Below, piece by piece: positions 9,744 to 61,887 of a stretch of DNA of 64,000 nucleotides. Numbering within the stretch: position 1 is the stretch's first letter; every line of letters begins with the position of its first letter. Below the pieces are notes generated by a model. That model ran no database searches. It saw only the letters and a program-made list of their open reading frames with translations, and was not told where the DNA came from. Where the stretch lies: NCBI GenBank assembly GCA_963733095.1, contig CAVTBV010000009.1:128001-192000 (forward strand), given 5' to 3'. A program made the position numbers and the translations under genes. The DNA comes from Candidatus Bathyarchaeota archaeon. Its GTDB lineage: Archaea > Thermoproteota > Bathyarchaeia > Bathyarchaeales > Bathycorpusculaceae.

Positions 9744-10055
9744 TTAGATCACGTATGTTTCCTGGATGGTTACCAAACCGTCGTCGCCAATAATCTGCTT
9801 CAAATCTGGCAGTAACGGTTCAAGCTTTTCTTGAGTATCCACAACTTCAATAATCAGGGGCATGTTCACTGTTACACCTTCAATGTGCAGCGTTGACTTG
9901 CCACGTTTGCCAAACCCGTTCACGCCCGTCCAAACGGTTGCGCCTTCAATTCCAGCTTTCATCAGACAATCTATAATAAGTGCCTGAAGACGTTTGCCTC
10001 CCACTTCATCGTTCTTTTTTATTCTTATGGTTAGGTCCCACATTTTTTGTCTCAA
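9744..10055 (-). CDS. DUF190 (PII-like) protein
   Basis: GIEGATVWTGVNGFG, PLIIEVVD, GLVT; coupled to crcB. Confidence 0.9.
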   Translation of the reverse strand: MRQKMWDLTIRIKKNDEVGGKRLQALIIDCLMKAGIEGATVWTGVNGFGKRGKSTLHIEGVTVNMPLIIEVVDTQEKLEPLLPDLKQIIGDDGLVTIQETYVI

Positions 10056-10441
10056 TGCATAAACCTCGCTATAATTTCGTCACCAAGCAGTTTGCCGCCA
10101 AATATCGCGCCCAAAGACAATCCCACATTTGCTAAGATATTTAGTGCCATTAGGCTAAAACGGTTTGCGTCGGCGAGGTTGCTGGTTTCCAAAGCGAAAG
10201 AAGACATCGTAGTGAAGGAACCACAGAAACCGACTGCTGCAAGCAGAGTGTATTGGGGTTCCAAGTTTAACCCGACCGACAAAACAGAGAAGAGCCCCAG
10301 AATGAAGCTGCCTAAAACGTTCACGACTAAAACGTTAACGGGCAACCCATAAATCGCCACTGGCGACTCAACGAGTCGGTAACGTAAAAAAGCTCCAACT
10401 ATAGCGCCTACTGCCAAGAGACCAAACTCGATCCACTTCAT
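10052..10441 (-). CDS. crcB: Fluoride channel Fluc/CrcB (start at MKWIEF)
   Basis: GAFLRY, VNVLGSF.LG, GFCGSFTTMSSF motifs; GGAAGGT SD before the ATG at 10441. Confidence 0.95.
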   Translation of the reverse strand: MKWIEFGLLAVGAIVGAFLRYRLVESPVAIYGLPVNVLVVNVLGSFILGLFSVLSVGLNLEPQYTLLAAVGFCGSFTTMSSFALETSNLADANRFSLMALNILANVGLSLGAIFGGKLLGDEIIARFMH

Positions 10442-48920: not shown

Positions 48921-49562
48921 TTAGTTTTCCCCTTCACATTCACACGCCGTTTTCAAGCCCAACGCTAAAAGGTACATTTCGCTGCTTTGTTGTCGGCTTG
49001 CCTGAGGCTTCACCAATTTTACCTCTTCAAAGAGGGTTTTCACGTGTAGAAGGAAGTCGTTTAGCAGATCGCCTTCGAAGACTTTGACAAAAAAGTTTCC
49101 GTTTACTCGCAGTACACATTGGGCGATTTCTAGGGCTTGGGTCGCTAAGTCGATTTGTCTTGCGTGGTCAACTTCCCATACGCCTGTGATGTTTGGGGCA
49201 GCGTCGCAGAGAACGACGTCCGCTTTGCGTGGAATAAACGAGATAATTTGGTCAACTACGCCTGGTTCTGTGAAGTCGGCGATGATTGTTCTGATATATT
49301 CTTGCGTGAAGGGGTCAATCGGCTTTAAGTCTAAGCCTAAAACAAAGCCGTGTTTGCCTGTCATTTTTCTTGCCGCTTGAATCCAGCCGCCTGGAGCCGC
49401 ACCTAAATCTACAACGACATCGCGCAGTTTGATGAAGCCGTATTTCTCGTTAGCTTGAACCAGTTTGTATGTGGATCGGCTACGATAATTTTCTTCTTTG
49501 GCTTTTTTATAGTAATATTCGTTTTTTCTCTCACGTATCCAAGCTTTCGGCAACGGAATCAT
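48921..49562 (-). CDS. rlmE: 23S rRNA 2'-O-methyltransferase RlmE/FtsJ
   Basis: YRSR..YKL, DLGAAPGGW, D.APN.TG, KVF.G, KP.ASR..S.E.Y. Confidence 0.95.
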   Translation of the reverse strand: MIPLPKAWIRERKNEYYYKKAKEENYRSRSTYKLVQANEKYGFIKLRDVVVDLGAAPGGWIQAARKMTGKHGFVLGLDLKPIDPFTQEYIRTIIADFTEPGVVDQIISFIPRKADVVLCDAAPNITGVWEVDHARQIDLATQALEIAQCVLRVNGNFFVKVFEGDLLNDFLLHVKTLFEEVKLVKPQASRQQSSEMYLLALGLKTACECEGEN

Positions 49563-49980
49563 CCTCTGGTATGCTTGGCTCTGGTGCTGAGGCGCTTTGA
49601 CCTTCAGTGTCAGTAACTGCTGGCGCTGGCGGTTTTCCTAAGTTCAGTATCCAATCGGTTAGTTTGGGGCAACTTTTGGGGGAAAGGGCGGTTGTGGGGT
49701 CGCAGCGTGCGTTGTCTGGGCATAATAAGCATGGGCAATCCACGATGGTTTCTATGGATGCAGGCAGCCTTTTGGGGTAGAGCCTATAGGTCCATCTGCC
49801 TTCTTGGAGTTCTTTTTCCCTGCGGATAAGCCCCTTCTCTTCTAGTTTAATCGACACGCGAGAACCTTCGCGGCTGCTTGCGCCGAGTTCACGCCATAAA
49901 TCTGATTGCAGTACACCCTGATAACCTGTACCGACGACGTAGTGAAGTGCTTTCTGTTCAAGGTCATTACGCTTAGGCAT
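49531..49980 (-). CDS. TFE-beta / RPC39(C34)-like wHTH-[4Fe-4S] protein
   Basis: GVLQS.LW..L...SRE.SR...KLE wHTH plus PC..CP....C......P..C..L..W cluster motif. Confidence 0.85.
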   Translation of the reverse strand: MPKRNDLEQKALHYVVGTGYQGVLQSDLWRELGASSREGSRVSIKLEEKGLIRREKELQEGRWTYRLYPKRLPASIETIVDCPCLLCPDNARCDPTTALSPKSCPKLTDWILNLGKPPAPAVTDTEGQSASAPEPSIPEDDSVAESLDT

Positions 49981-50017
49981 TTATGATCAGTTCCAAATAA
50001 TACAGTAATATAAGCGT

Positions 50018-50025
50018 TGGATTCA
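50018..50025 (+). repeat. Candidate attL core TGGATTCA
   Basis: Identical 8-mer at 60164-60171; nearby imperfect repeats. Confidence 0.4.
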
Positions 50026-50119
50026 CATAAAAATATGTTTCCTTAGCTGTAGCTGAGAATATATCTACCATCTTTAGTTTTTTTGAAAAGCTTTTTAACG
50101 ATAGAGAGGTTGTTAGCAA

Positions 50120-51490
50120 TTGAGCGATTTGACTCAAGCTAATGAAAAATGGGTTCTATCCTTTGAAAGTGGTCGCAATTGGCTACCTCACTTGCCTAGT
50201 TCAAGTACTAAAGAGCCGTTCATTCGACACCTAAAGAAATACTCTCTATGGGCTAAAATGAATCCTGATGAATTGATAAATTTCAAGATTGAAGGTTTAA
50301 AAGCAGTAGCAACAGAAAAGGAATTCCAAGCCGAAAGAATGCTAGAGAAGTATCTTAGACAAACTGGAATGACGCAATCAGTTGCAGCATACGCCAAAAA
50401 CGCCATTATTAGCTTCTATAAGCACAATTGGAGAGAACTTAATTCAGAAGTCGCTAGAGATATTGAGCCACCAGAAGCAAAAAAGAGAACGCCTAAGCTA
50501 GAAGAAATTCAAGAGCTAGAAAGCAACTGTACAACCGCTAGAGATAGGGCTTTAATTTGGTTTTTCCCGTCTACTGGTTTTAGGATAGGAACGCTAACCA
50601 AGCTATTTAGAAATGACCTTAAACCTACTGGTGACGCTGAAGTACCTTATTATCTGGAAATAGAAGCTAAGAGACTAAAAGGCTCTGGAATTGGTAAGTA
50701 CAAAGGGCTTAAACAAATCACCTTTGTTAACAGCTTTGTTTGGGCTAAGATGCAAGATTACTTCGCTGAAGCTAAAAGAAGAGGTTTTAATCTAACTGAG
50801 GATTCACCGCTATTTATCGGATACAAAGGTCGATTTACTAAAGAAGAAAGAAAGCTATCCGTTAAACCCAAAAAAGTTAGAGCAATGACTGAAGGAGCAA
50901 TCAATAACACTTATGACAATGCATCACTAGCCGCTTGGAAAGACTTAGAGGTAAAACGCTTTTCTCCCCATGACAACAGAGATGTTTTACAGAGTGCTTT
51001 AGAGAATGTCGTTAACGATAACATGATAGCTCCTATGTTAGCCCATAAACCAAAAAACGCTGTTGACTTCCACTATTCAAGCCACTTATGGCAAGAGCTA
51101 TTACCAAAATACAAATTGGCATTACCAAAACTAATCCCACAAACCACAGCAGAACTTAAAATAGAAATAAACCAACAGAAAGCAACTAACCAAAAACAGC
51201 AATCCGAAATAGAAGCCATAAAAGAAGAAATGAATGCAAGATTTGAAAAACTAGCTTCTCTTTTGAAAAGTGATGCAAAAGTATTACCGCCTGAAAATCA
51301 AGATGAAATATTTAGATTAAAGACAAATGGATTACTATCGGAAAGTGAAATAGCACAAAAGCTTAAACTTAAACTTAAGGCAACGGAAGACCATTATATT
51401 GATGAAAACGGAAAAGAATTAGACCCTAAAACTTTAACGGAAGAGCAAAAGAAGAAATTTAAATCTGTAACGGAGTATTGGGAACTTTAA
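50120..51490 (+). CDS. int: Tyrosine recombinase/integrase with coiled-coil and HTH-like C-terminal extension
   Basis: RDRAL..F..STGFR (Arg), LKG (Lys), SPHDNR (HxxR), LAH (His), FHY (Tyr). Confidence 0.9.
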   Translation: MSDLTQANEKWVLSFESGRNWLPHLPSSSTKEPFIRHLKKYSLWAKMNPDELINFKIEGLKAVATEKEFQAERMLEKYLRQTGMTQSVAAYAKNAIISFYKHNWRELNSEVARDIEPPEAKKRTPKLEEIQELESNCTTARDRALIWFFPSTGFRIGTLTKLFRNDLKPTGDAEVPYYLEIEAKRLKGSGIGKYKGLKQITFVNSFVWAKMQDYFAEAKRRGFNLTEDSPLFIGYKGRFTKEERKLSVKPKKVRAMTEGAINNTYDNASLAAWKDLEVKRFSPHDNRDVLQSALENVVNDNMIAPMLAHKPKNAVDFHYSSHLWQELLPKYKLALPKLIPQTTAELKIEINQQKATNQKQQSEIEAIKEEMNARFEKLASLLKSDAKVLPPENQDEIFRLKTNGLLSESEIAQKLKLKLKATEDHYIDENGKELDPKTLTEEQKKKFKSVTEYWEL

Positions 51491-51711
51491 TTTACGCTCT
51501 TTTCCCACATCTTTTTTATTCTCTTTTTACCCTAAGATTCTAAATTATAGCCAACTATCAAAGATTGATACTAAGATAGTATGTGATTCTAAACTAAGAT
51601 AGTATAGATAATATAATATAGGTAGTAAAGTTAGTGTAATAAGTACACCCATAGCATAGTTAACGACTAAATTTTCTGTTGATTCTATTGGACCTAGCCT
51701 ACATTTTCGCT

Positions 51712-52214
51712 TTAGTTTGTCGGATAGTGGCTTTAGTCACTATCAATAATCTTGTCTTATCATGGACTCAATAAGGGATATTGTTAATTATCTAGAGTAA
51801 ATTGTGCGGATACATCGCTAGTGATTTTTATCCGACACAATATTTTAGGAATAAAGCAGAGAGTTAACTAACAGACTACAGCGAACAGTTTAATCTTGGA
51901 TAATGTCGGCTCTGGTTGTGTCGGTCTTCAAATAAGAAGATAAAGAGCCGAAAGTGTCGGTCATATGGGAAGACTGCTATCTCTGGGCTATAAGAGTTTG
52001 TCGTATAGATAACTGAGATAACTTATGCTTTAGCCCATATTCCCGACAGAACGGCACTATCTTATCGCCTATTCCTTATTATAATATCTATACCGACACA
52101 GAGAACACCAGAATATAGATAAGATTATAAATTAACTAAGATAACCTACACTTATAGACAGATAACCGACAAACTAACTCCGCTACCCGATTGAATCCGA
52201 CACCAAATCCGACA
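51712..52214. repeat. Non-coding region with 10 CCGACA/TGTCGG hexamers and nested inverted repeats
   Basis: TGTCGG at 51718, 51904, 51919, 51955; CCGACA at 51832, 52043, 52093, 52166, 52197, 52209. Confidence 0.8.
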
Positions 52215-52315
52215 GCCAGCATCCATAGTTAAGCTACCCCTGAAAGAAAATCATTGTCCTCACGATGGCTATTCTGAAGCCTGAATATTAGGTTTATTTT
52301 TCATGGTTTCTTTGT

Positions 52316-52699
52316 TTAGTGAAGATTTTTTATTTCCTTATAACAAGTATCTAATTTTCTTAAGAGTTTAACAACTCCATAATACGCAATCAATGAAGTT
52401 ATTGCAGCTACGAAAAATAAAAAAGTATTTATGGTGAAAGCTGGAGGTTGGTTTATGAATAATTGTATTGCAAATACTGTAAAAGTGACTCCACCAGCAA
52501 AAAACCCAAAAATTCCAGCTAAGTAGATTTGAAGGTCTGAATTGAGTTGGGCTAACCTGATTTGTAAGGCTCTATCTTCAATTATAGCATTTCTATTTTG
52601 AATAGCAAAGGCTTTTTCAATCTTTTCTTTAATGGCTAAATATTTGTCTAGCGCTTTATTGAATTGGTCTAAGCCTTTATCAACATCACTATCAGGCAT
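52316..52699 (-). CDS. Element membrane protein (two TM)
   Basis: Helical N-terminus followed by two hydrophobic segments. Confidence 0.7.
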   Translation of the reverse strand: MPDSDVDKGLDQFNKALDKYLAIKEKIEKAFAIQNRNAIIEDRALQIRLAQLNSDLQIYLAGIFGFFAGGVTFTVFAIQLFINQPPAFTINTFLFFVAAITSLIAYYGVVKLLRKLDTCYKEIKNLH

Positions 52700-52755
52700 T
52701 TTTATCTGGTTGTTCGTATGGCGTTAACTGCTTAAAAGTTTTATCTTTAGTTTTG

Positions 52756-52938
52756 TTATCGGTGTCTATCATAGTCGTTTTTAGATAACACATAACCAGC
52801 TAGAGAAATTAAGAGAAAACCGACAACGCTCATGATAATTTGACCGATTAAACTTAAAGCCAAAACGTTAACTAAACCAAAAAGCAAAACAACTACTCCT
52901 AAAGCAAGAACAAATTTGAAAGCGTCTACTAATCCCAT
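52756..52938 (-). CDS. Element small hydrophobic protein (two TM)
   Basis: 60 aa; GAGGT SD upstream. Confidence 0.75.
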   Translation of the reverse strand: MGLVDAFKFVLALGVVVLLFGLVNVLALSLIGQIIMSVVGFLLISLAGYVLSKNDYDRHR

Positions 52939-52950
52939 ATTATTTACCTC

Positions 52951-53277
52951 TTAGAAGTCAAACGGTGAACGCTTTTTCTTTTTTCTGCTCGGTGGCTCAC
53001 CTAAGAAGGCATTTTCATTAACTTGAGGAACTTCCCACATCTTGTTAAGCCTCTTATTGTACGCTATTCGGTCACGTTCATCTTGCCGTCTTTCTCTTTC
53101 TTCATTCTGCACAAAAGCTTGACCTCTGGCATATCCTCTTCCAGCATGATAATGTTCTCTTTCAATTTGAGCGTAATATTGCCTATCTTGCTCTTGTATT
53201 CGTTTTCTTGCTTCATTCTCACGGTAGGCTCTTTGAATACCTCTTCCGAGCAATTTACCAAATATCCATAGACCCAT
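52951..53277 (-). CDS. Element Arg/Glu-rich hypothetical protein
   Basis: 108 aa, amphipathic N-terminus, basic tail; in an operon with the 60-aa gene. Confidence 0.7.
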   Translation of the reverse strand: MGLWIFGKLLGRGIQRAYRENEARKRIQEQDRQYYAQIEREHYHAGRGYARGQAFVQNEERERRQDERDRIAYNKRLNKMWEVPQVNENAFLGEPPSRKKKKRSPFDF

Positions 53278-53469
53278 TCCAAAATAGTAAAAAGTTTTAC
53301 CAAATCCTATAAGAATTCTCTTGCCGATATTCTTTGAATTTGCCGTTTTAGATTCCAGCTTGTAAGTGTTTGTTTGAAAGTCTATTTATAATCTGTGGTA
53401 AACTCTTTCACTCGCTTTTTTGCATCGCTTGTTTTGCCTTAGTTCTTGTTTGTGTTTTGCTTGTGAAAA

Positions 53470-54117
53470 CTAACTAGGTGTTAAACCTAGAAAATTTGCC
53501 AGAATGAAGGAAATAAAGATAGCAGTTATGAAAAGAGCGAAAGAAATATAGAAAATTCTAAGGTATATTTTTGTGCGCATTTTACCCGTAAATTGTTTCT
53601 GTCCTGAGAGTTTGCAAATATGTTTTTCAAGTGACCTTGTTATTATTGGTGAAATAAAAACTTGAGATACCATTAATCCCATAGCAAATGCGTTTTTAAC
53701 GCTCTGTAAAAGGATGGGATTTGTTGAATTAAGGATTACATTTAACGCTATGAATGGAGTTACCAAATAATATATCAAACAGCTAAAAAGCAAACCCCAC
53801 GAAAGAATACGATACTCCATTGAGTCAGTCAACATTCCCCTTAACCCTATAGAATACGAAGCTAAGAGTGAGAGAATAATTCCTATTATTGAGAGTGCAA
53901 AACTGCTTGAAAATCTGTTAAAGAAAAAGGCGTGTTGACTTACAAGGATTCCAAGAGAGAATGTTGCAATTGCCACTAGGATGTTGTATAAACTATCTAT
54001 CTTATTGAGAACATTATCTCTTTTTCGCTCTTTTTTCGAGTTCAGAGATTCTTCTAGAAGTATGTCGATTTTTTGCTCTAAGGATTTGCTTTCTTCTGTT
54101 ACCACATATTTTCGCAC
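53470..54117 (-). CDS. Element polytopic membrane protein
   Basis: About 5 hydrophobic segments. Confidence 0.7.
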   Translation of the reverse strand: MRKYVVTEESKSLEQKIDILLEESLNSKKERKRDNVLNKIDSLYNILVAIATFSLGILVSQHAFFFNRFSSSFALSIIGIILSLLASYSIGLRGMLTDSMEYRILSWGLLFSCLIYYLVTPFIALNVILNSTNPILLQSVKNAFAMGLMVSQVFISPIITRSLEKHICKLSGQKQFTGKMRTKIYLRIFYISFALFITAIFISFILANFLGLTPS

Positions 54118-54194
54118 TCGATAGATTGTTTTAGGAAAGCTTTTAGTTTTTGCTCTTTTGCGCTTTTTGAATTTAATGACTTAGTTATTTAATA

Positions 54195-54926
54195 TTACTT
54201 GATGTTCTCTAACTCTAGTGTAAGCTGTTGAATTTCGTTATCAACCTCTTCATTCTCTTTAAGCTCTTTTGAATAGAGTTCTCGAGTTTTAATTTGAAAT
54301 TGTTCAAAGAAATTATCGACCAAAGATTGATATTGATTTAGTGCAAGCTTTAAATCAATCTCATTGTGATTTTCGATATATCTTACAAAACCTTCACGTT
54401 CAAGTATTGGGTAAAGTTCTTCTTTTCTTTCAAGCAAGCTTTCCTTTGTTAAGAGTATGCTCTGTCTAAATGGTTGACCAATTCCCATTCTAGAGAAGTG
54501 TGCTACCAAATCTAGTAATTCATAGTGTTGGGTTAAATGTCGCAAGCATCTGCTAAAATTATATGAATCATCGGACTGTAAAGAACCAATTTTTGTTTTA
54601 TAAAAATCACTTATTCTTTCGTACCTTTCACTTAACTTCTTCCCCTGAGCAATCAATGTATAGGTGCTAGCAAGGTAGTTATGAAGTAATCTGGAAAGTT
54701 CTGCAAAGAACAAAACTCTTTCTTTCATTATGTTTATCAAAAATGTTGTATTTGCTTCATAGCTATTAATTGCCGTAGACAACTCTTGATAGTTTTTGTT
54801 AACCGCATAATGAGTGTTTCTAAAGTTATTGAGCATCTGAGAAACTTTAGTGCCGTACAATGTTCCTTTCTTTTCGTCTAGTAACGCCAATTTTTCTAAA
54901 ATTTGCAGTCTTCTATTTTGGCTCAT
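54195..54926 (-). CDS. HEPN-like protein (RxxxxH)
   Basis: All-helical; R.LHNYLAS..TL followed by LRHLTQHY; start at MSQNRR. Confidence 0.6.
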   Translation of the reverse strand: MSQNRRLQILEKLALLDEKKGTLYGTKVSQMLNNFRNTHYAVNKNYQELSTAINSYEANTTFLINIMKERVLFFAELSRLLHNYLASTYTLIAQGKKLSERYERISDFYKTKIGSLQSDDSYNFSRCLRHLTQHYELLDLVAHFSRMGIGQPFRQSILLTKESLLERKEELYPILEREGFVRYIENHNEIDLKLALNQYQSLVDNFFEQFQIKTRELYSKELKENEEVDNEIQQLTLELENIK

Positions 54927-55216
54927 TAGTATCTTTTGATAAGTGTACACTTTACTTTTAGTTCTTTGCCCTTTTGCCCTTATGTAAAAGTTAGGTACTC
55001 TCTGGAAAAATAAGAAGCCCAAACTAAGCCCCGTTAGAAAAAAATATACTCACACAACCTAAAAAGACCTATAATGACTTATTTTTTAAATTGGTTTAAA
55101 ATTTATGCCCTAAAAAAAAATTGCGCTCTGATTCTTCCTTCTTCTGTACGTTAATAGGGTGTCCACTAGTATATTATAATATAATATTATTTTATATTAT
55201 AACTACTAAACTATAA

Positions 55217-55882
55217 CTAACTACTACTAACTAACCCTCTATTCCCATATCTCTGATTATTGATTGGCTCACTATCGTTCGCTTCTGTGTCACATATGGG
55301 TATAGAGTGATAATTATCTAAGGAAGGATTGATATCCTGTGAGTGTATAATTTTTTCTTGGGCTATCTTTTTATTTTCTTCTATTTGCTTAAGTTGGTTA
55401 ATAATAAAGTCATTTTTAATTTTACATAAACGGTTGAATTCTTCATTTATGAGGTTTGAATCTAGAAAATAGCGTGTATTGTTATCTGGTAGTATGTTGT
55501 CATTGACCGTTATGTGTGAGTCTGGGTTTTGTCTAAGATATTTACCCGCTAGCAATGCATCGGTGAAGTCATAAAAAACCAATCGGTCAACTTTAGTTTT
55601 GGCTATGTTAAATTGTCGGTAATAATCCAGAATTGCTTCTTTTATTTTAAGTTTTAAATCGTGCCTATTTATAACGCCTTTTTTAGCTACCAAGTTTGGA
55701 TGTTGTTCTAACTGTCTAGCTCTAACCGTCTTTTGCCAATCGGTCAGGTTATTTTCAGTTTCTTCTTGTTCGTCAATATAGTTTTTCAGAACTAAAAGTA
55801 CATGACTGAATTTCCATTGCTCAGAACTTAGACCCGTTAACTCTTCTCTACTCTTCATACTTTTTCCCTTCACTTTTGACAT
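55217..55882 (-). CDS. Element hypothetical protein
   Basis: 221-aa ORF with no recognised motif. Confidence 0.7.
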   Translation of the reverse strand: MSKVKGKSMKSREELTGLSSEQWKFSHVLLVLKNYIDEQEETENNLTDWQKTVRARQLEQHPNLVAKKGVINRHDLKLKIKEAILDYYRQFNIAKTKVDRLVFYDFTDALLAGKYLRQNPDSHITVNDNILPDNNTRYFLDSNLINEEFNRLCKIKNDFIINQLKQIEENKKIAQEKIIHSQDINPSLDNYHSIPICDTEANDSEPINNQRYGNRGLVSSS

Positions 55883-56437
55883 TAGAAATAGCCTTAAGCT
55901 ATACTCTATCGTAAGTATTAAATGTTACGATACTATTTAAATATTTTTCCTTTAAAAAATAAATGTTGTTACATGTCCTAAAAAAGACATATGTTAATAG
56001 AAGGGAAGGTTCGTGTTAGTCGAACCTGAAGAGTTAATTAACATATATGTGCTTCCACCCTTATAAGCTTTATGGCGTAATAAGACACCATATATGGCGA
56101 AAGTTAACGTTAAAAGAGCAAACCCGTGTTAGTCGGGAATGCCAAAGTTGAAGGATTTTTTAGGTTAAAAAAAGAGTGTCTATGGTGGTGAAATGGATGA
56201 AATGTATAAGCTACCTATGCCGACACCCAAACATAGGATAATAGCTTATAAGTGAAGTTCACGAATTTAAATATTTTTATTGCTAGCAACAATCAATTAT
56301 TTTGTAGTTAGGAATATGGTTATATTATACATATTAACCGCAAAATCACTAAAAAGAGTTATTGGAAATAAAAAGACATAAATAGCTATATGAAGCTATA
56401 CGACTCTATAGCAAATATTAATATGGGAGATATGTAA

Positions 56438-56716
56438 ATGGCAAAACATGTTCAAAAACAATATTCAATAAACACTAGTTTAGATATTAATGAAAACCTA
56501 AGAATCCTGCGTTATAAGACTAATATGAACAATGCAGCTATTCTAAGCCAAATCATAACGCCACTAGCAGAGAAATTAGGCAACCAAGAAAAACCATGCG
56601 GTTTTATAGTTTATACCGTTAATGACCAAATAATCATTCAAACATATGGTTTTGGCAGTATTGTTTGTTCTGGTAAAGCCACCGCAACATTAAGCGATAT
56701 TTTAGGAGTTGCTTAA
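56438..56716 (+). CDS. Element hypothetical protein (possible ribbon-helix-helix N-terminus)
   Basis: QKQYSINTS strand followed by two helices; first gene of the rightward operon; GGGAG SD. Confidence 0.65.
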   Translation: MAKHVQKQYSINTSLDINENLRILRYKTNMNNAAILSQIITPLAEKLGNQEKPCGFIVYTVNDQIIIQTYGFGSIVCSGKATATLSDILGVA

Positions 56717-56718
56717 CC

Positions 56719-56925
56719 GTGACTAAACAAAATCCTCAAACATTGAAAGAATCTACTGACCTTATCATTCAAGGGATTCAAGCCAAACAACTAAGAGAAA
56801 AAACATTAAACGGTGAAATTATCCAAACCTATGATGTTAAAGGTGAACTTGATTCAATCCCAAGAAATTTTGCTAGAAAGCTAGACAAACCTTGCGATGA
56901 GCTATCTAAAGAGAAGGAAGTCTAG
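56719..56925 (+). CDS. Element hypothetical protein
   Basis: AGGAG SD, tight operon spacing. Confidence 0.7.
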   Translation: MTKQNPQTLKESTDLIIQGIQAKQLREKTLNGEIIQTYDVKGELDSIPRNFARKLDKPCDELSKEKEV

Positions 56926-56927
56926 CC

Positions 56928-57506
56928 ATGACTGAAGACGAAAAAGAAAATACCTATTCCGTTCCATTGCCAAAAGACAGTAAAACAATTAAGATGACCA
57001 TTGACGCAACAGCTAGAGAACAGCGTTTACTAGAAGACCTAAACAAAGCTAACCAAACTATAGGCGCACTCATGGGGCAACATAAAAAAGAATTCATCGA
57101 AGGAGAACAACGACCAGCCCCGAACGGTGACCAAGAGGATACTTCAACTATTGACCGTGAAGATAGAGCTAGAAACGGAAACGATACAAGAATACAATCT
57201 GCTGGGAGCTACGTAGATGTAGATTGGGTTAAAGGTTCAACGGTTCCAGAGGTCATTGAGAAGATTGAGTACTTAAGTAAGGTTGCAGATAACAAAGAAG
57301 TTTTTAAGAAAATCCATAATTCTCTGGTAAAAAAGGTGCTTCATGGGAAGCCAATTTCTATACAGTTTGAAGGTAGCCTAAAACAATTAGCCACTACAAG
57401 AGAAAAACAAATTCCAGAATTTTGTGATGACTCAACACGAAAACAGCTTCAATCTTGGAACACTAAAGTTAGAGCCAATAGGGTAAATTGGTCGGAGATA
57501 GAATAA
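56928..57506 (+). CDS. Element hypothetical protein
   Basis: 192 aa, tight operon spacing. Confidence 0.75.
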   Translation: MTEDEKENTYSVPLPKDSKTIKMTIDATAREQRLLEDLNKANQTIGALMGQHKKEFIEGEQRPAPNGDQEDTSTIDREDRARNGNDTRIQSAGSYVDVDWVKGSTVPEVIEKIEYLSKVADNKEVFKKIHNSLVKKVLHGKPISIQFEGSLKQLATTREKQIPEFCDDSTRKQLQSWNTKVRANRVNWSEIE

Positions 57507-58003
57507 TGTCACTAGAAAAGAAACATGTTCCAAAAAGTGGATTTTGGAAACAAGAACATGACGGAAAAATGTATTGGGTCGAAAGTGACAAATTTGGAAA
57601 CCTAATAAAACTTTATGACCCCTTAGAAATTGAAGGCATAAGTCGTAGTGCAAATTACACTATAGTTTTTTTACGTGAATACACAGATACAAATTCTTTC
57701 AACGGCAAAATAAAAAAATGGTTTGCACAAGACATAAAGATGCATATAGGAGAAAATGTTGATTCATCGATAGTGATAAGGTTCGATTCTTATTCACGTA
57801 AATTCTTTATATCTGATTTAAAACCCGTTGGTCAAACTTTTTTAGCTCCACTTGAAAGCACACCTGAGTTAATTGTTACAAAAAGCGAACCTTACCCCGT
57901 AGACCAAATACAAGCGAAAGAAATCTTAGCTAAATATTCCTATGGATTCGGCAAGGTCGAAGTTGACGCTCAGGGAAATATCGAATATTATCAGACCTGT
58001 TGA
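57506..58003 (+). CDS. Element hypothetical protein
   Basis: TAATG coupling to the previous gene; GGAG SD. Confidence 0.7.
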   Translation: MSLEKKHVPKSGFWKQEHDGKMYWVESDKFGNLIKLYDPLEIEGISRSANYTIVFLREYTDTNSFNGKIKKWFAQDIKMHIGENVDSSIVIRFDSYSRKFFISDLKPVGQTFLAPLESTPELIVTKSEPYPVDQIQAKEILAKYSYGFGKVEVDAQGNIEYYQTC

Positions 58004-58007
58004 TTCT

Positions 58008-58202
58008 ATGACCCGTTGCGACTATTGCCACCAAGTTATTTTTCACAAAAATAATGAACGATTTTGTAACAGAGACCATAGTCACGCATATGTTCGCAAA
58101 CTGAGCGAAGTTTCAAGACGCTACATGTATAATTCACCTGAGCAACTTGAAGCCATAAAATTATATAAAAAACTAGGGAAGGATTACAAAAATGGTTTAT
58201 GA
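58008..58202 (+). CDS. Element small zinc-binding protein
   Basis: MTRCDYC...RFCNRDH (treble-clef/TRASH-like). Confidence 0.6.
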   Translation: MTRCDYCHQVIFHKNNERFCNRDHSHAYVRKLSEVSRRYMYNSPEQLEAIKLYKKLGKDYKNGL

Positions 58203-58323
58203 AAATTATAATGAATGTTCATGTGGCTTCGATAAAGCTGAGACCCGTATAGTTAATGGTCAAGTCTGGATAGTTTGCAGTAATCCCTTATGTCAAAAAG
58301 TACGTTATCGTTCATGGTTCTAA
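58192..58323 (+). CDS. Element 43-aa zinc-ribbon microprotein
   Basis: MVYENYNECSCGFDKAETRIVNGQVWIVCSNPLCQKVRYRSWF. Confidence 0.6.
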   Translation: MVYENYNECSCGFDKAETRIVNGQVWIVCSNPLCQKVRYRSWF

Positions 58324-58821
58324 ACCACTCTCCCCCTAGTTGGAGATTATATACTAATCAAATAATCTCAAAAAAATATGGGCTATTCTAAGGCTGTTTT
58401 TCTTTCTCTCACATAATCGCCTTATTTCCTCACTATAGCTTTTAGGCTAGCTTTTCTTTTTTGGCTTATGCATATCGATTATTATGCTATATCGACCATA
58501 ATAAAATAAAATCAGAGCTAACCCTAAAAATAATTTTTCAAAATATTTTTTGTTTTAGGTCTCTCTATGTGTAAAAAGTTGAAAAAAGGGGCTTAAAATG
58601 GGCTTCTTTTCCATTTTTTTCAAAATTTTCCCTATTTTAGACCCTATTTAAACCAAAAGTTTGTTAAGTTTGCTTCTCAAATCGCTTAAAATACAACTTT
58701 TGGTCCATGCTCACCCAGAGTATTAAAATATTTTCAAAAAGGAGCGTGAAAAAAGACGAAAAATGATAAAACGAAAAAATCTAAGACGGAACCTCAAAAA
58801 GAAGCGTTAAATTACAATTCG

Positions 58822-60111
58822 TTGATAAAAAAAATTGCTGAGAATGGTGACCTTTGCGTTCTCGGCATGAAAGGCACATGTAAAACCACTCTGCTTATGC
58901 ACTTAGCTAGAAACATAATGGAAGACCTAGACAACCACTTGATTATATTTGAGACCTTCCCGAAATGGCAAAAGGAATTCGATATTATACCCTACATGAT
59001 AATAAGCGATAGTGACGTTCAAGAAAAAGAAAATTCGCCATATATGCAAGAAAATTATTCTTATATTCAATGGTCTAAAAACTATGAGATAGCTAACGAA
59101 AGCGAAGTTTTAGAATTTCTAAAGACTAATAGAAATTGCTTATTCCTTATCGAAGCTGAAGACATGGAACGAATAAGCGCCTTTATGGAATTCGTGATTT
59201 ATACATGCTACAGAAAACAATACTTGAGAGCTAAAGCTGAAAACTTAGAGACTGTTAACGCTAATTATTGGTTCTTATGCGAAGAGGCACATAACCTTTT
59301 AGACAGTACAGTACTATCTAAAAAAACCTTTAACAAACTCCGAAAAATGCAGAGCGAATTCAGAAACTTAAAGATGCATCTTATAGTTGTGACTTTACGG
59401 TTACAATCACTTAGCCCAAAAATTAGAAGTACCATGTCTCTTTTGTGTTCCCGTGTAAGTTTGGATGACTACATGCTTAAGCTGAGAGCGTTATTAAGAA
59501 ATAGCGAATACAGAGACCTTATCACAACATTACCCAAAGGCGAATTTGTTTTTCCAGAGACAGACCAAAAATTAACAACTAAGCCATTTAATCAAGCTGG
59601 AAAGCCATATGAATGGAAACCAGAACCAGAGCCAACTATAGAAGAGACCACAGAAGAGCCTAGCTCAGAACCAGAACAGCCTAAAACCATTATGGGATTT
59701 ATAAAGAATCTATTCCACAAAAGCAAACCTGAGATTATAACCCAAAAAGAATACGATAGACTAAACAACTTAGACGATAAAGAATCAGAACCAGAGATAA
59801 AGATAGTTAGGGAAAAAGTTATAGCTATCACAATTAAGAAACCCAGAGCCACAAAACCAAAAACTACAGAGCCGATTAAAGAACCTGAAAAATCAAATAT
59901 GGAAAAGCTAAGAGATGTTTATTCCTCAGATAGCCAAGCATCTAAAGATTATGAAGCTTGGAAGAAAAAAGCTTTAGCCGAAAAGAAGCAAACAGAAACT
60001 AAAGAAGCAGAAACCGAAAGCAAAGAGAGGGAAGACAACATAAATGAAGATTCAAAAGGCGATTTTTTAGCCCTAAATGATGATGATTTAATGTTTAGTG
60101 AAGAGGAATAA
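58822..60111 (+). CDS. FtsK/HerA-superfamily P-loop ATPase with long charged low-complexity tail
   Basis: Walker A GMKGTCKTT, Walker B FLCEEAH, FRN..hhhhT.R...LSP.IR, LPKGEF. Confidence 0.75.
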   Translation: MIKKIAENGDLCVLGMKGTCKTTLLMHLARNIMEDLDNHLIIFETFPKWQKEFDIIPYMIISDSDVQEKENSPYMQENYSYIQWSKNYEIANESEVLEFLKTNRNCLFLIEAEDMERISAFMEFVIYTCYRKQYLRAKAENLETVNANYWFLCEEAHNLLDSTVLSKKTFNKLRKMQSEFRNLKMHLIVVTLRLQSLSPKIRSTMSLLCSRVSLDDYMLKLRALLRNSEYRDLITTLPKGEFVFPETDQKLTTKPFNQAGKPYEWKPEPEPTIEETTEEPSSEPEQPKTIMGFIKNLFHKSKPEIITQKEYDRLNNLDDKESEPEIKIVREKVIAITIKKPRATKPKTTEPIKEPEKSNMEKLRDVYSSDSQASKDYEAWKKKALAEKKQTETKEAETESKEREDNINEDSKGDFLALNDDDLMFSEEE

Positions 60112-60163
60112 AAAAAATGAACAACCACAAAAGTCAAAAATCATATATCCTTAGTTGGGGCTG

Positions 60164-60171
60164 TGGATTCA
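60164..60171 (+). repeat. Candidate attR core TGGATTCA
   Basis: Identical to 50018-50025; 19 nt upstream of the kae1 ATG. Confidence 0.4.
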
Positions 60172-60190
60172 AATATGTATCCCTAGTTAA

Positions 60191-61231
60191 ATGTGGAATG
60201 ACATGAGAAAAACCAAGAACGATGATTCAGGCAAATACTGTTTAGGCGTTGAATCTTCAGCTGACGACTTTGGAGTCGGCATCGCGAGCTTTAGCGGCGA
60301 AATTCTGGCTAACAAATCAGAAGGCTATATCCCAGCAGAAGGCGGAATCCACCCGAGAGAAGCCGCAAGGCACCATTCCGAGGTTGCGGACAAAGTTCTA
60401 AAAGAAGCCTTATCCAAAGCTGGCGTGAAACCGCGGGAATTGTCCGTTATTGCCTTCTCTCAAGGTCCAGGCTTAGGACCTAGCCTGCGAACAGGAGCCA
60501 CAGTTGCCCGAGCTTTAGCCTCATTCCTTGAGGTTCCTTTGGTAGGCGTCAATCATTCCATTGCCCACATCGAAATTGGAAAACTCAAAACAGGAGCCAA
60601 AGACCCCGTTACGCTTTATGCTTCAGGCGGCAACACTATGGTCACAGCTTTCGAGTCGGGACGCTACCGTGTCTTTGGCGAAACCTTAGATATTGCATTG
60701 GGTAACTGCCTTGACGTTTTCGCAAGGGAAGCAGGGCTTAAACATAAGAAGGGTCTGCCTCTTGGCGCAGCCGTGGAGCAGTTGGCGGCTAAGGGTGAGC
60801 GGCTTGTTTCCTTGCCGTATGTGGTTAAAGGCATGGATTTGTCGCTTAGCGGCTTATTGACTGCAGCTATAACCCACTTACAAAAGGGTGATTGTCGGCT
60901 CGAGGACCTGTGTTATAGTCTTCAAGAACACGCTTTCTCCATGGTAACAGAGGTGACTGAGCGGGCGTTGGCACACACCGAGAAGAAAGAAGTTTTGCTC
61001 ACGGGCGGAGTTGCAGCCAATAAACGACTCCAATTGATGCTTAACTCGATTGCTTTAGAACATGATTCAAGCTTTAGCGTGGTTCCCCTAGAGTTTGCAA
61101 CTGACAACGGCGCTATGATTGCTTGGACAGGCGTTTTGGCGTTTAAACATGGGTTGTTTACGGCTTTGGATGAGAGTTTTGTAAAACTACGTTGGCGAGT
61201 CGACAAGGTGGATGTGCCATGGATACAATAG
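60191..61231 (+). CDS. kae1: KEOPS subunit Kae1 (t6A synthesis)
   Basis: LG.ESSA, GGIHP.EA..HH, GPGLGP.L, NH..AH, SGG.T, GET.D.A.G, DNG.MIA. Confidence 0.96.
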   Translation: MWNDMRKTKNDDSGKYCLGVESSADDFGVGIASFSGEILANKSEGYIPAEGGIHPREAARHHSEVADKVLKEALSKAGVKPRELSVIAFSQGPGLGPSLRTGATVARALASFLEVPLVGVNHSIAHIEIGKLKTGAKDPVTLYASGGNTMVTAFESGRYRVFGETLDIALGNCLDVFAREAGLKHKKGLPLGAAVEQLAAKGERLVSLPYVVKGMDLSLSGLLTAAITHLQKGDCRLEDLCYSLQEHAFSMVTEVTERALAHTEKKEVLLTGGVAANKRLQLMLNSIALEHDSSFSVVPLEFATDNGAMIAWTGVLAFKHGLFTALDESFVKLRWRVDKVDVPWIQ

Positions 61232-61887
61232 ATAAAGTCAACTCGGCAAGGCTGCTAAAGAAAGGTGCCGAAGCCAGCTTATTCCTCTCTGAATGGCATC
61301 AGCGAAAAGTAATCATTAAAGTCCGTATTCCAAAAAAGTACCGTCCGCCACAGTTGGATGAGCAAATCCGCAGCTACCGCACCGTCCATGAACCGCAACT
61401 GATGCATGAAGCCAAAATTGCCGGGGTAACGACACCTTTGATTTACATGGTTGACGTGCCTCAATCAACCATCATCATGGAGTTTATTGAGGGCCAACAG
61501 GTAAAACAGGTTCTAAACAAGGTTACAAAAATGGAACGCCACGATTTATGCGTGAGCATCGGTGAATCCATCGCGCGGCTACATATACGCGGATTAATCC
61601 ATGGTGACCTAACCACTTCCAACTTGATTCTAAACCCAAAAGACAAAATCTTCTTTGTGGATTTTGGATTGGGCGAAAAAAACCCAGAGCTTGAAGCCCA
61701 GGGGGTAGACTTGCATCTGCTCAAGCGCGCCCTGCAGAGCACACATTACCCGTTCTGGGAAGAATGCTTCCAGAACGTTCTATGTGGTTATTCATCCATC
61801 GTAGGTGCTGAGTCATTGGAAAAGGTTTATGAGAAAATCCGTGAGATTGAGAGACGTGGACGTTATGTCGAAGAGCGCAAACAGTAA
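61219..61887 (+). CDS. bud32: KEOPS kinase Bud32
   Basis: KGAEA, K.R.PK.YR, HGDLTTSN, DFGL, RGRY. Confidence 0.95.
   Translation: MDTIDKVNSARLLKKGAEASLFLSEWHQRKVIIKVRIPKKYRPPQLDEQIRSYRTVHEPQLMHEAKIAGVTTPLIYMVDVPQSTIIMEFIEGQQVKQVLNKVTKMERHDLCVSIGESIARLHIRGLIHGDLTTSNLILNPKDKIFFVDFGLGEKNPELEAQGVDLHLLKRALQSTHYPFWEECFQNVLCGYSSIVGAESLEKVYEKIREIERRGRYVEERKQ

Follow-up and report, generated by a model that had tools for sequence, protein, structure and literature searches.

A small integrated element between TFE-beta and kae1 in a Bathyarchaeia genome, with a candidate DNA-pumping ATPase at its edge

The locus studied here raises the question of what kind of genetic element has come to lie between the genes for TFE-beta and Kae1 in a member of the Bathyarchaeia, and what the ATPase that it encodes may do. 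It is contained in a 64,000-nucleotide stretch of contig CAVTBV010000009.1 of Candidatus Bathyarchaeota archaeon (assembly GCA_963733095.1, positions 128,001 to 192,000 of the forward strand), which we call the window and from whose first letter all coordinates are counted. An initial annotation, made from the letters alone, had described a compact integrated element of unrecognised type in this place. This proved correct: related genomes have the empty site, the element is bounded by short attachment (att) cores and forms an island of low GC content, and no description of the family was found in the full-text literature, paper supplements, which could list such islands without naming them, lying outside that search. 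With a probability of about one half, we take the element to belong to a new family of small cryptic integrative elements that is restricted to the Bathyarchaeia and whose ATPase pumps the excised DNA circle.

A composition scan of the window revealed a fall in GC content from 45–49% to 29–40% across positions ~50000–60200. The inserted block itself (50039–60178) comprises 10,140 bp, has a GC content of 34.2% as compared to 45.4% in the remaining window, and is coding over 74.7% of its length. It is flanked on the left by genes for an FtsJ-type methyltransferase and a 149-aa winged-helix protein with a Pfam B-block_TFIIIC/MarR-type match, which we take to be TFE-beta, as the initial annotation had labelled it, and on the right by kae1 (TsaD family, E = 1.4e-80) and a Bud32-like open reading frame (ORF). 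Forty relatives were searched with the TFE-beta protein, and the locus was inspected in the 23 genomes of the same genus that gave a match. In 20 of these 23 genomes the site was empty, with TFE-beta and kae1 arranged divergently at a distance of ~70–130 bp (11 + 9 loci); of the other three, G004 and G019 are occupied and the contig of G020 stops at the site. The existence of empty sites runs counter to the outcome which the initial annotation had named as refuting a mobile element, namely the same genes at this locus throughout the relatives.

Alignment of the junctions with the empty sites showed that the host sequence continues uninterrupted as far as an 8-bp core, AAATATGT, which is present twice at this locus and once in the empty sites. 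A 16-nt arm (TCCTTAG.TG..GCTG) is found on the element side of both cores. The ends had initially been placed at 50018 and 60171, on an imperfect repeat (TGGATTCA...AATATGT), and the alignment refined them to the exact core. The right-hand core ends 12 nt upstream of the kae1 ORF, within the A/T-rich part of the ~70-bp divergent intergenic region. No tRNA gene was detected in the 64-kb window, nor at the element borders of 31 related loci that were scanned. Taken together, these data showed that a tyrosine recombinase has integrated the element at the 8-bp core in the TFE-beta/kae1 intergenic region. We infer that the target region serves as the promoter of kae1, whose upstream half the element replaces with a sequence of its own; this sequence would keep the essential kae1 gene expressed. 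Archaeal integrases mostly target tRNA genes, and beside these usual targets the kae1 promoter would be an unusual one. In some relatives (e.g. L030) ORF-calling stretches kae1 upstream over the att core, so that automatic annotation may mask the att site. The kae1 and bud32-like ORFs of the window (60191–61887) overlap by 40 nt.

Through a genus-wide integrase search and inspection of the loci, we found the TFE-beta/kae1 site to be occupied in five more genomes and one metagenome contig. The copy in G115 (L030) measures 6.2 kb and encodes an integrase that is 72% identical to that of the window but has an N-terminal frame break, together with an intact, likewise 72% identical ATPase. In the 5.1-kb copies of G004 (L107) and G019 (L108) the ATPase is cut down to 77 and 113 aa, respectively, and in the 9.2-kb copy of G078 (L110) it is split into parts of 173 and 204 aa. 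In G067 (L109) the integrase gene adjoins TFE-beta and the contig ends, and in metagenome contig L037 the ATPase gene is followed by kae1. The core AAATATGT and closely similar arms are common to all six wherever the junction is covered, the left-hand core with its arm being present in L030, L107, L108, L109 and L110, whereas most of the genes between the ends have no relation to their counterparts in the window. These copies look like independent or long-diverged integrations of a modular family and not like a vertically inherited host locus. Decayed copies at one site are typical of selfish elements, and the broken genes listed above show that decay of the integrated copies is frequent.

Other members of the family were found at other sites. 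L031, L032 and L033 adjoin ilvD, another intergenic site, while L029, L035 and L036 adjoin genes of the isopropylmalate/isocitrate dehydrogenase and aconitase families, which suggests that neighbours in the branched-chain amino-acid pathway mark further preferred intergenic integration sites. In L031, the decayed element on contig C4 of G115, the integrase and the ATPase are both frame-broken, and ARAGORN predicted a tRNA-Ser(GCT) gene inside this element (L031 11792–11866).

The integrase of the window's element is intact, as had been noted from the start, and the catalytic residues are conserved. Its matches to known families were weak, namely to Pfam Phage_integrase (E = 2e-4; 21.6 bits, under the 27.1-bit cut-off), to the PHROG 216 integrase (E = 0.003) and to the NCBIfam XerA-like family (E = 4e-7, far under its cut-off). 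Integrases of relatives pass the Pfam cut-off (29.8 bits for L061 and 42.9 bits for L068), and an iterative profile search joined the window integrase with integrases of ~380 aa (24 proteins from 22 loci). In an alignment of 14 family integrases (A6), R287 and Y319 are invariant and K187 is present in at least 90% of the rows. The window integrase has H284-x-x-R287, H310 and Y319, and thus the catalytic set of a tyrosine recombinase. Unlike SSV-type integrases, its gene is not broken by integration.

At the kae1 end, the element encodes a stand-alone ATPase with a Walker A motif (GMKGTCKT) at residues 15–22 and a Walker B motif (WFLCEEAHN); K21, E154 and E155 are conserved in the family alignment A1. 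AlphaFold2, run on a 43-sequence alignment, returned a model with a mean pLDDT of 79.5 and values mostly above 85 in residues 1–270. The C-terminal tail is disordered, and its acidic, hydrophobic end motif recurs across the family. When the model was compared to the PDB with Foldseek, HerA complexes came out on top (8wj3_D, E = 4.3e-9; also 8ziq, 9x1m and 4d2i), and the STIV/STIV2 packaging ATPase B204 (4r2h) was matched at E = 6.3e-8, with target-normalised TM-scores of 0.67–0.70. With VIA-align, residues 1–262 reached Z scores of 15.7–21.1 against HerA, B204, VirB4, TrwB and FtsK: 21.1 for defence HerA (8xaw_D; root-mean-square deviation 3.0 over 232 aligned residues), 20.2 for HerA of Sulfolobus (S. 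solfataricus; 4d2i_B), 18.8 for the C-terminal domain of DndH (7es4), 18.4 for STIV2 B204 (4kft_C; deviation 2.6, 191 of 204 residues aligned), 18.2 for VirB4 (4ag5_A), 17.4 for TrwB (1gl6_A) and 15.7 for FtsK (6t8o_F). Among the viral models of BFVD, Foldseek ranked the ATPase of Haloarcula virus PH1 (E = 1.8e-8) and a Corticoviridae NTPase best, and STIV and A32-type packaging ATPases were also matched. The predicted fold and the motifs establish that the ATPase belongs to the FtsK-HerA superfamily, in agreement with its initial label of FtsK/HerA-like. Its Walker A motif begins at residue 15, and only the HerA core could be aligned (residues 138–542 of 8xaw_D); lacking an N-terminal HAS barrel and a helical domain, the protein is not HerA proper. 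As modelled, its architecture is the minimal single-domain form of the viral packaging ATPases.

The ATPase also served to delimit the family. At E ≤ 1e-3, 106 ATPase proteins were obtained among 4,152 candidates, one being the window's own; 97 of the 106 are 54–78% identical to it, and informative names are absent. Matches were present in 22 of the 120 genomes of the genus (G000 counted), 65 loci were confirmed among 226 pattern matches in metagenome contigs, and nine among 48 matches in species-representative genomes, three of which duplicate other loci. All nine named genome records are Bathyarchaeota or Bathyarchaeia metagenome-assembled genomes.

Which genes travel with the integrase and the ATPase was determined by iterative profile searches with the ORFs of 90 sources (the loci plus the window). 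Among 17 elements with both an integrase and an ATPase, the coiled-coil protein was found in 13, and the 165-aa protein, the ribbon-helix-helix (RHH)-like protein and the Zn protein in seven each. The span from integrase to ATPase amounts to 5.9–11.0 kb in 14 loci. The small-gene operon runs leftward beside the integrase, with the variable genes running rightward to the ATPase, in L042, L103, L104, L064 and L035, and it runs rightward directly before the ATPase in the window, L020 and L050. These comparisons showed that the family consists of a backbone of integrase, ATPase and small-gene operon, and that the remaining genes are swappable cargo.

The six small rightward ORFs reported initially (92, 68, 192, 171, 86 and 43 aa) all exist; their designation as orphans did not hold, as those of 92, 192, 171 and 86 aa belong to the conserved backbone. 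Homologues of the RHH-like protein lead the operon in L042, L064, L068, L103, L104 and L105, and a profile built from them (A7) matched CopG of the PDB over the full length at an E-value of only 0.5. The beta-rich protein was modelled in its 165-aa form from 16 sequences (AlphaFold2, pLDDT 86.4), giving twelve strands and one helix. Comparison of this model to 48,161 PDB representatives with VIA-align produced no match at Z ≥ 5 (best Z 3.7), and Foldseek found nothing in BFVD at E ≤ 0.001; the protein therefore does not have a jelly-roll fold, and no structural relative of it can be detected. Homologues of it (29–48% identical) adjoin divergent ATPases, only 19–24% identical to the window's, in L020, L025 and L027. 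The fact that the protein accompanies even very divergent ATPases suggests, at the level of gene neighbourhood, that the two are functionally tied. These three loci come from the genus genomes G082, G075 and G072, respectively, and their ATPases form a second, very divergent clade that is found beside the same partner gene.

One relative bears directly on the excised form. L061 is a metagenome contig of 11,600 bp with a 99-nt terminal direct repeat, and hence probably a complete circle, on which the integrase gene comes immediately after the ATPase gene. Because the integrase stands at the TFE-beta end and the ATPase at the kae1 end of the window's element, an excised circle would read ATPase, attP, integrase, and this is the gene order of L061. 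The same contig encodes a histone-fold protein (7999–8325), a winged-helix protein (877–1215) and three HNH/Zn-type proteins.

On this basis, the element would excise as a circle of ~10.1 kb, and its ATPase, going by the modelled fold, would form a hexameric pump for double-stranded DNA that moves the circle into a particle or out of the cell. A CCGACA array and two hairpins in the intergenic gaps would either bind or load the element's small DNA-binding proteins or act as an origin for them, and these proteins would serve replication, regulation or recognition. The particle or transfer route would come from unrecognised backbone proteins or from a helper. To our knowledge, all element-encoded FtsK-HerA ATPases act in packaging, extrusion or conjugative transfer; this statement draws on established knowledge of the superfamily, reportedly set out by Iyer and co-workers in 2004. 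We favour the pump because the known element-encoded members of the superfamily transfer, extrude or package DNA and because the architecture of this ATPase is of the minimal packaging type. Two papers, quoted here and below, like the other cited sources, for the portions available to us, also underlie this reading (PMC4158269, PMC6813254). The element is filed as a cryptic integrative element rather than as a virus because no capsid is recognisable: scans of its proteins with Pfam, PHROGs, PADLOC and NCBIfam gave only weak integrase matches and no capsid, Rep, MCM or primase, just as the initial annotation had stated.

Several observations weigh against this interpretation. No transfer or particle gene was identified in the element, which leaves fold and architecture as the grounds for the pump role, and the fold cannot distinguish packaging from other DNA-pumping roles in a modelled protein. 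Moreover, HerA-type chains, which are helicases and defence proteins, receive slightly higher VIA-align scores than the packaging ATPase of the virus. At the level of sequence, the family profile of the ATPase matched PDB sequences at best with E = 0.089, and the protein is above the cut-off of no Pfam family, with no match to the DUF87/HerA families. The hydropathy scan revealed no membrane segment in the ATPase, and there is no conserved membrane partner, which makes export from cell to cell awkward. The smallest relatives (5–6 kb; L030, L107 and L108) have no room for a structural module. In IMG/VR, which the initial annotation had proposed to search, no relative was found either with the single ATPase (13 pattern matches, none confirmed) or with the ATPase alignment (86 matches, none confirmed). 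Among the proteins of unknown function, a structure model was made for the 165-aa protein alone; the jelly-roll test thus consisted of this model, with the other ORFs being compared by sequence profiles, which gave no match. Finally, 24 open codons without a start codon precede the TTG start of the ATPase, and an out-of-frame ATG lies at 58763 among A-runs. The N-terminal region (58750–58830) could reflect a real frameshift, an assembly indel or a genuine TTG start; nine relatives show no conservation of the DNA that precedes the ATPase gene (mean column identity 42%).

Table 1. Features of the integrated element and its boundaries (window coordinates).
Feature	Coordinates	Strand	Remarks
attL	50031–50055		core 50031–50038, arm TCCTTAGCTGTAGCTG 50040–50055; from empty-site alignment and other occupied sites
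Tyrosine integrase, 456 aa	50120–51490	+	intact; C-terminal coiled-coil extension
Iteron-like array, 10 x CCGACA	51718–52214	four of first five -, last five +	candidate origin or protein-loading site
127-aa protein (cargo)	52316–52699	-	two C-terminal hydrophobic helices in hydropathy scan
60-aa protein (cargo)	52756–52938	-	almost wholly hydrophobic, one long segment; 82% identical copy in L039
108-aa protein (cargo)	52951–53277	-	highly charged; 83% identical copy in L039
215-aa membrane protein (cargo)	53470–54117	-	four predicted hydrophobic segments; no family match
275-aa ORF (cargo)	54195–55022	-	likely 243 aa from M33 (54195–54926); possible HEPN-type
221-aa protein	55217–55882	-	motif QNP[TD]SHIT..N..ILPDN[DN]T[RK]Y; 17 distant homologues
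Two hairpins	55988–56140		loops with identical 11-mer CGTGTTAGTCG (56012–56022, 56125–56135); between divergent gene blocks
92-aa backbone protein	56438–56716	+	RHH-like N-terminus; homologues head same operon
68-aa protein	56719–56925	+	no relatives among family loci searched
192-aa coiled-coil backbone protein	56928–57506	+	c26/c43 superfamily, linked via L050 homologue; alignment A5
171-aa ORF	57488–58003	+	probably 165 aa from Met at 57506; beta-rich backbone protein, 11 loci
86-aa Zn-binding backbone protein	57942–58202	+	CxxC...C..H.H; 16 proteins in 14 loci
43-aa Zn-ribbon protein	58192–58323	+	homologue in L027
Third gap	58324–58821		upstream of ATPase
Stand-alone HerA/FtsK-superfamily ATPase, 429 aa	58822–60111	+	core residues 1–270
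attR	60148–60178		arm TCCTTAGTTGGGGCTG 60148–60163, core AAATATGT 60171–60178; same alignment

The leftward block of six ORFs (Table 1) is present as initially described, including its membrane proteins, for hydrophobic segments were predicted in the 127-aa (two), 60-aa (one) and 215-aa (four) products. The 127-aa protein had no family match in Pfam, PHROGs, PADLOC or NCBIfam and no relative among the family loci compared, and the homologues of the 60-aa and 108-aa proteins lie side by side in L039. Membrane proteins occur often in the family without being conserved across it, and the analogy to small enveloped viruses that the initial annotation had drawn is therefore unsupported. All 20 homologues of the 275-aa ORF are ~228–262 aa long and begin at the internal methionine, which makes a product of 243 aa likely. 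In an alignment of 19 members (A3), RLLHN and LR[HN]xxQH are invariant, the latter containing an Rx4H motif (R129, H134). This motif agrees with the initial description of the protein as HEPN-like, whereas Pfam and PDB sequence profiles lend it no support: none of the 19 members matches a Pfam family, HEPN included, and no significant PDB profile match was obtained. Searches of the Atlas returned unnamed clusters only. A HEPN-type protein is accordingly a lead only, suggested by the conserved motif. The 221-aa protein has 17 distant homologues among 1.84 billion representatives (alignment A4), so that it is not the orphan that had been supposed. It possibly binds DNA; one of 16 family members gave a weak match to the MCM_C winged helix of Pfam (E = 0.007), and no usable match was found in the Atlas. 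We also considered it as an HUH endonuclease on account of its SHIT...Y motif and rejected this, as a mere 15 residues separate the histidine from the tyrosine and the protein shows no further HUH motif.

PADLOC recognised none of the cargo proteins of the element. Domains of defence-type or other cargo were found in six of 18 relatives scanned (150 proteins), the other variable genes giving nothing: L104 and L077 carry SIR2_2, L105 and L047 a CAP12/Pycsar TIR domain, L042 a fusion of a DNA methylase with Mrr_cat, and L068 MazE. By analogy with these relatives, the leftward block, with its three membrane proteins and the Rx4H protein, would be cargo and may be defensive. A SIR2_2 gene lies directly upstream of the family ATPase in L072 (3254–4294) and L077 (8719–9765), an arrangement that recalls SIR2-HerA pairs.

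Conceivably, the element could instead be an autonomous small provirus, in which a packaging ATPase of the PRD1/STIV type acts together with unrecognised capsid or membrane structural proteins. The candidates for the latter would be the 192-aa coiled-coil protein as a scaffold, the 165-aa beta protein and the small membrane proteins, of which the element has three. The minimal single-domain architecture, shared with B204-type ATPases, and the best viral matches (PH1, corticovirus and STIV) fit this idea, and so do genes for HK97-like major head proteins inside two relatives. One is in L071 (PHROG 283, E = 4.6e-11) and one in L061 (8410–9315, minus strand; PHROG 267, E = 5.5e-6; Pfam Phage_capsid_4, E = 2.1e-5, under the cut-off), and these two proteins share an identity of 27% (E = 6e-18). 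L061 contains no ORF of the size of a portal or terminase gene. The window's element has no HK97 capsid gene according to Pfam and PHROGs, and a hidden Markov model built from the L071 and L061 proteins matched nothing in it. The model for such a virus would be ArcVen-P3, which has similar parts within 9.5 kb (PMC4158269). Against a provirus stand the fold of the sole conserved beta-rich protein, which is not a jelly roll; the lack of capsid, portal or terminase matches in Pfam and PHROGs; the poor conservation of the membrane proteins; relatives of 5–6 kb that contain only small proteins of the DNA-binding type; and the absence of a match in IMG/VR. We therefore regard this possibility as doubtful.

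The non-coding regions are relevant to a second alternative. The initial annotation had spoken of two structured gaps, and a repeat array and hairpins are indeed contained in 51491–52315 and 55883–56437; the gaps, however, number three (Table 1). The CCGACA motif of the array occurs 10 times in 497 bp, as compared to 36 times in the remaining 63.5 kb, and 19 copies would be expected by chance over the whole window. This array is shared by L090/L091 only, and clusters of element-specific repeats were observed in L068 (8 copies), L061 (7 copies) and L046 (8 copies), those of L061 being of the CTCTCTAT type and located at 9861–10236. Element-specific iterons typically mark an origin or a site at which sequence-specific proteins load. 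A role of the array as a KOPS-like guide of the ATPase to attP was rejected, as the switch in orientation lies ~2 kb from attP. As for the hairpins, their loop 11-mer has two exact copies, both in the hairpin region; the first hairpin is nested in an 11-bp inverted repeat, the two stems differ, and the region folds better than shuffled sequences (z = -3.74 as DNA and -2.60 as RNA). No Rfam family was matched in 49500–60500 at E ≤ 1, and scans for promoters (36 promoter-like sites versus 36.3 in shuffled sequences) and terminators (7 versus 6.5) remained at the level of chance.

One might also picture a purely plasmid-like integrative replicon without a dedicated transfer function, whose ATPase is a replicative helicase or initiator that the small DNA-binding proteins load at the inverted CCGACA iterons. 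Apart from the integrase, the ATPase is the only large gene conserved throughout the family, a place that in small replicons is usually held by a replication protein. The iterons form two opposed sets, relatives possess their own repeat clusters, and cellular HerA is reported to have helicase activity. However, the FtsK-HerA clade is not known to include a replicative helicase, a helicase of the DnaB type came no higher than rank 46 in the Foldseek comparison to viral models (E = 9e-4), and the repeat clusters do not keep a constant place with respect to the ATPase gene. For these reasons a replicon of this kind seems unlikely.

The capsid-like genes of the relatives allow a more specific viral proposal. 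Here the family would be a new lineage of very small archaeal viruses with a HerA/FtsK motor that packages DNA into particles of the 165-aa beta protein and the coiled-coil scaffold, and the particles of L061 and L071 would be built from the HK97-fold protein; we give this combined proposal little credence. If it were true, an FtsK/HerA packaging ATPase would for the first time be paired with a capsid other than a jelly roll, contrary to the rule, given in the available text of PMC4158269, which confines such ATPases to jelly-roll viruses.

Another possibility is a satellite, which would carry defence genes as cargo and use the particles of a helper virus, packaging of its DNA being ensured by the ATPase and the small DNA-binding proteins that it encodes. 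Known phage satellites carry such cargo, and the small size, the lack of a capsid gene, the defence-type genes of relatives, the occasional lone HK97-like capsid genes and the frequent decay would all fit. We know of no tailed, filamentous or spindle-shaped virus that uses a packaging enzyme of the FtsK/HerA type. The Bathyarchaeia viruses described in the available part of PMC10848311 are tailed, filamentous or spindle-shaped; no helper is known, and IMG/VR held no viral contig with similarity. Altogether, a satellite appears improbable. The check for spacers in clustered regularly interspaced short palindromic repeats (CRISPR) that the initial annotation had suggested gave no link: the one array of this genome (29 spacers) contains no spacer matching the element or related loci, the best alignments within this array being of 14–16 nt and at chance level. 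This CRISPR-like array, the only one that a simple k-mer scan detected, lies at positions 190709–192912 of G000 contig C1, outside the window, and consists of 30 copies of a 37-nt repeat with spacers of 32–58 nt.

It could also be argued that the locus is a defence island, in which a HerA-like ATPase works with variable effectors (SIR2, TIR, a nuclease, or here the Rx4H protein) and the integrase merely mobilises the set. The top structural matches are indeed defence HerA complexes (8xaw, 8wof and 8ziq), a SIR2 gene stands directly upstream of the ATPase in L072 and L077, and there was a weak PADLOC match to mad8 (E = 7.7e-6). The ATPase nevertheless has neither the N-terminal barrel nor the helical parts of HerA, and its position beside the att site is fixed whatever the cargo. 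No effector gene adjoins it in the window's element, as one does in SIR2-HerA and DUF4297-HerA systems; effectors are usually distant, the Rx4H gene lying 3.8 kb away on the other strand and the TIR gene of L047 8 kb away, and most family members have no defence domain. We hold this explanation to be very improbable. An inovirus-like provirus with the ATPase as pI and the 60-aa hydrophobic protein as coat protein is hardly credible, for although the one marker conserved among inoviruses, pI, is an FtsK-HerA ATPase, and inoviruses are small, often integrated and equipped with 30–90-aa coat proteins with one membrane segment (PMC6813254, as far as available), the ATPase shows no Zot match at E ≤ 0.1 in Pfam and no membrane segment, so that two of the pI-like features of Roux et al. 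2019 are missing, no rolling-circle Rep was detected in Pfam, PHROGs or NCBIfam, the 50 best BFVD matches include no protein of an inovirus, and the family as a whole does not conserve the 60-aa protein.

The reading that we prefer, a cryptic integrative element with a DNA-pumping ATPase, has several implications. Bathyarchaeia are among the most abundant archaea in sediments, and the family is common in them, with ~100 protein clusters and a presence in about one in five genomes of the genus. Given its compact backbone and its swappable SIR2, TIR and restriction-modification cargo, the family is likely a vehicle of defence-gene exchange in Bathyarchaeia. Its integrase, with a defined 8-bp core site, could become a starting point for genetic tools. 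In addition, the family contributes a stand-alone HerA/FtsK motor without a recognisable capsid, and a conserved protein (the 165-aa one) with a confidently predicted structure that has no detectable structural relative.

Among published systems, the literature that we found, as far as its text was available, covers four families of Bathyarchaeia viruses and no plasmid or small integrative element family. A survey of these viruses presents, in its accessible portion, four families, none of which resembles the element of the window (PMC10848311), and the accessible portion of the Bathy-6 genome paper mentions only a tailed provirus of 46.8 kb (PMC11697101). The ATPase itself resembles the packaging ATPases of STIV/STIV2 (B204), PH1/SH1, corticoviruses and the A32 type in having one RecA-like domain of ~200–270 residues and no accessory domains, and differs from them by the lack of an accompanying jelly-roll capsid gene, by an identity of only 10–13% and by a long disordered tail with an acidic end. 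To SIR2-HerA, DUF4297-HerA and cellular HerA it is related by the highest structural scores (Z 20–21). Unlike these, it has no HAS-barrel or helical domains and is a backbone gene of a mobile element rather than one half of an effector-linked pair.

In functional terms, the nearest analogue is provided by the pT26-2 plasmids, a family from Thermococcales and Methanococcales (Badel et al. 2019, PMC6972569). According to the available text, these plasmids likewise are integrative and combine a variable region with a conserved core that includes an ATPase resembling VirB4 and B204. The core (t26-5p, 6p, 7p, 11p, 13p, 14p and 15p) is kept even in copies without replication genes, and a role in DNA transfer has been proposed for it (PMC6972569). 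The pT26-2 elements differ in their size of 17–38 kb, in seven core genes that are rich in membrane proteins, and in their split integrases of the SSV type (PMC6972569); judged by these descriptions, the Bathyarchaeia family is two to four times smaller and stands apart by having no conserved membrane protein.

The closest single element is ArcVen-P3, a 9.5-kb putative provirus of Archaeoglobus veneficus (Makarova et al. 2014, PMC4158269). Compared by its description in the available text, it shares with the element of the window an integrase, RHH proteins, a Zn-binding protein, a coiled-coil protein, a divergent FtsK-like ATPase and nearly the same size. ArcVen-P3 has an SSV-type integrase split at a tRNA gene and a VP16-like single jelly-roll capsid near the ATPase (PMC4158269), whereas here the integrase is intact, the target is a promoter region and the beta protein is not a jelly roll.

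As a category, the archaeal cryptic integrated elements (CIE) described by Krupovic et al. 2019 (PMC6563490) come closest. Like these, as presented in the portion of the paper at hand, the element is an integrase-bearing insertion with short att sites that is absent from relatives and has no viral or conjugative hallmark genes, and relatives of it carry restriction-modification cargo. The catalogue of Thaumarchaeota CIE contains att sites down to 8 bp and 15 intergenic elements out of 68, and lone HK97 capsid genes in CIE are treated there as relics, as in NitKor-E1 (PMC6563490). While the thaumarchaeal CIE have a median size of 17 kb and, in the text available, no signature gene beyond the integrase (PMC6563490), the members of the family described here measure ~5–11 kb and possess a defined backbone.

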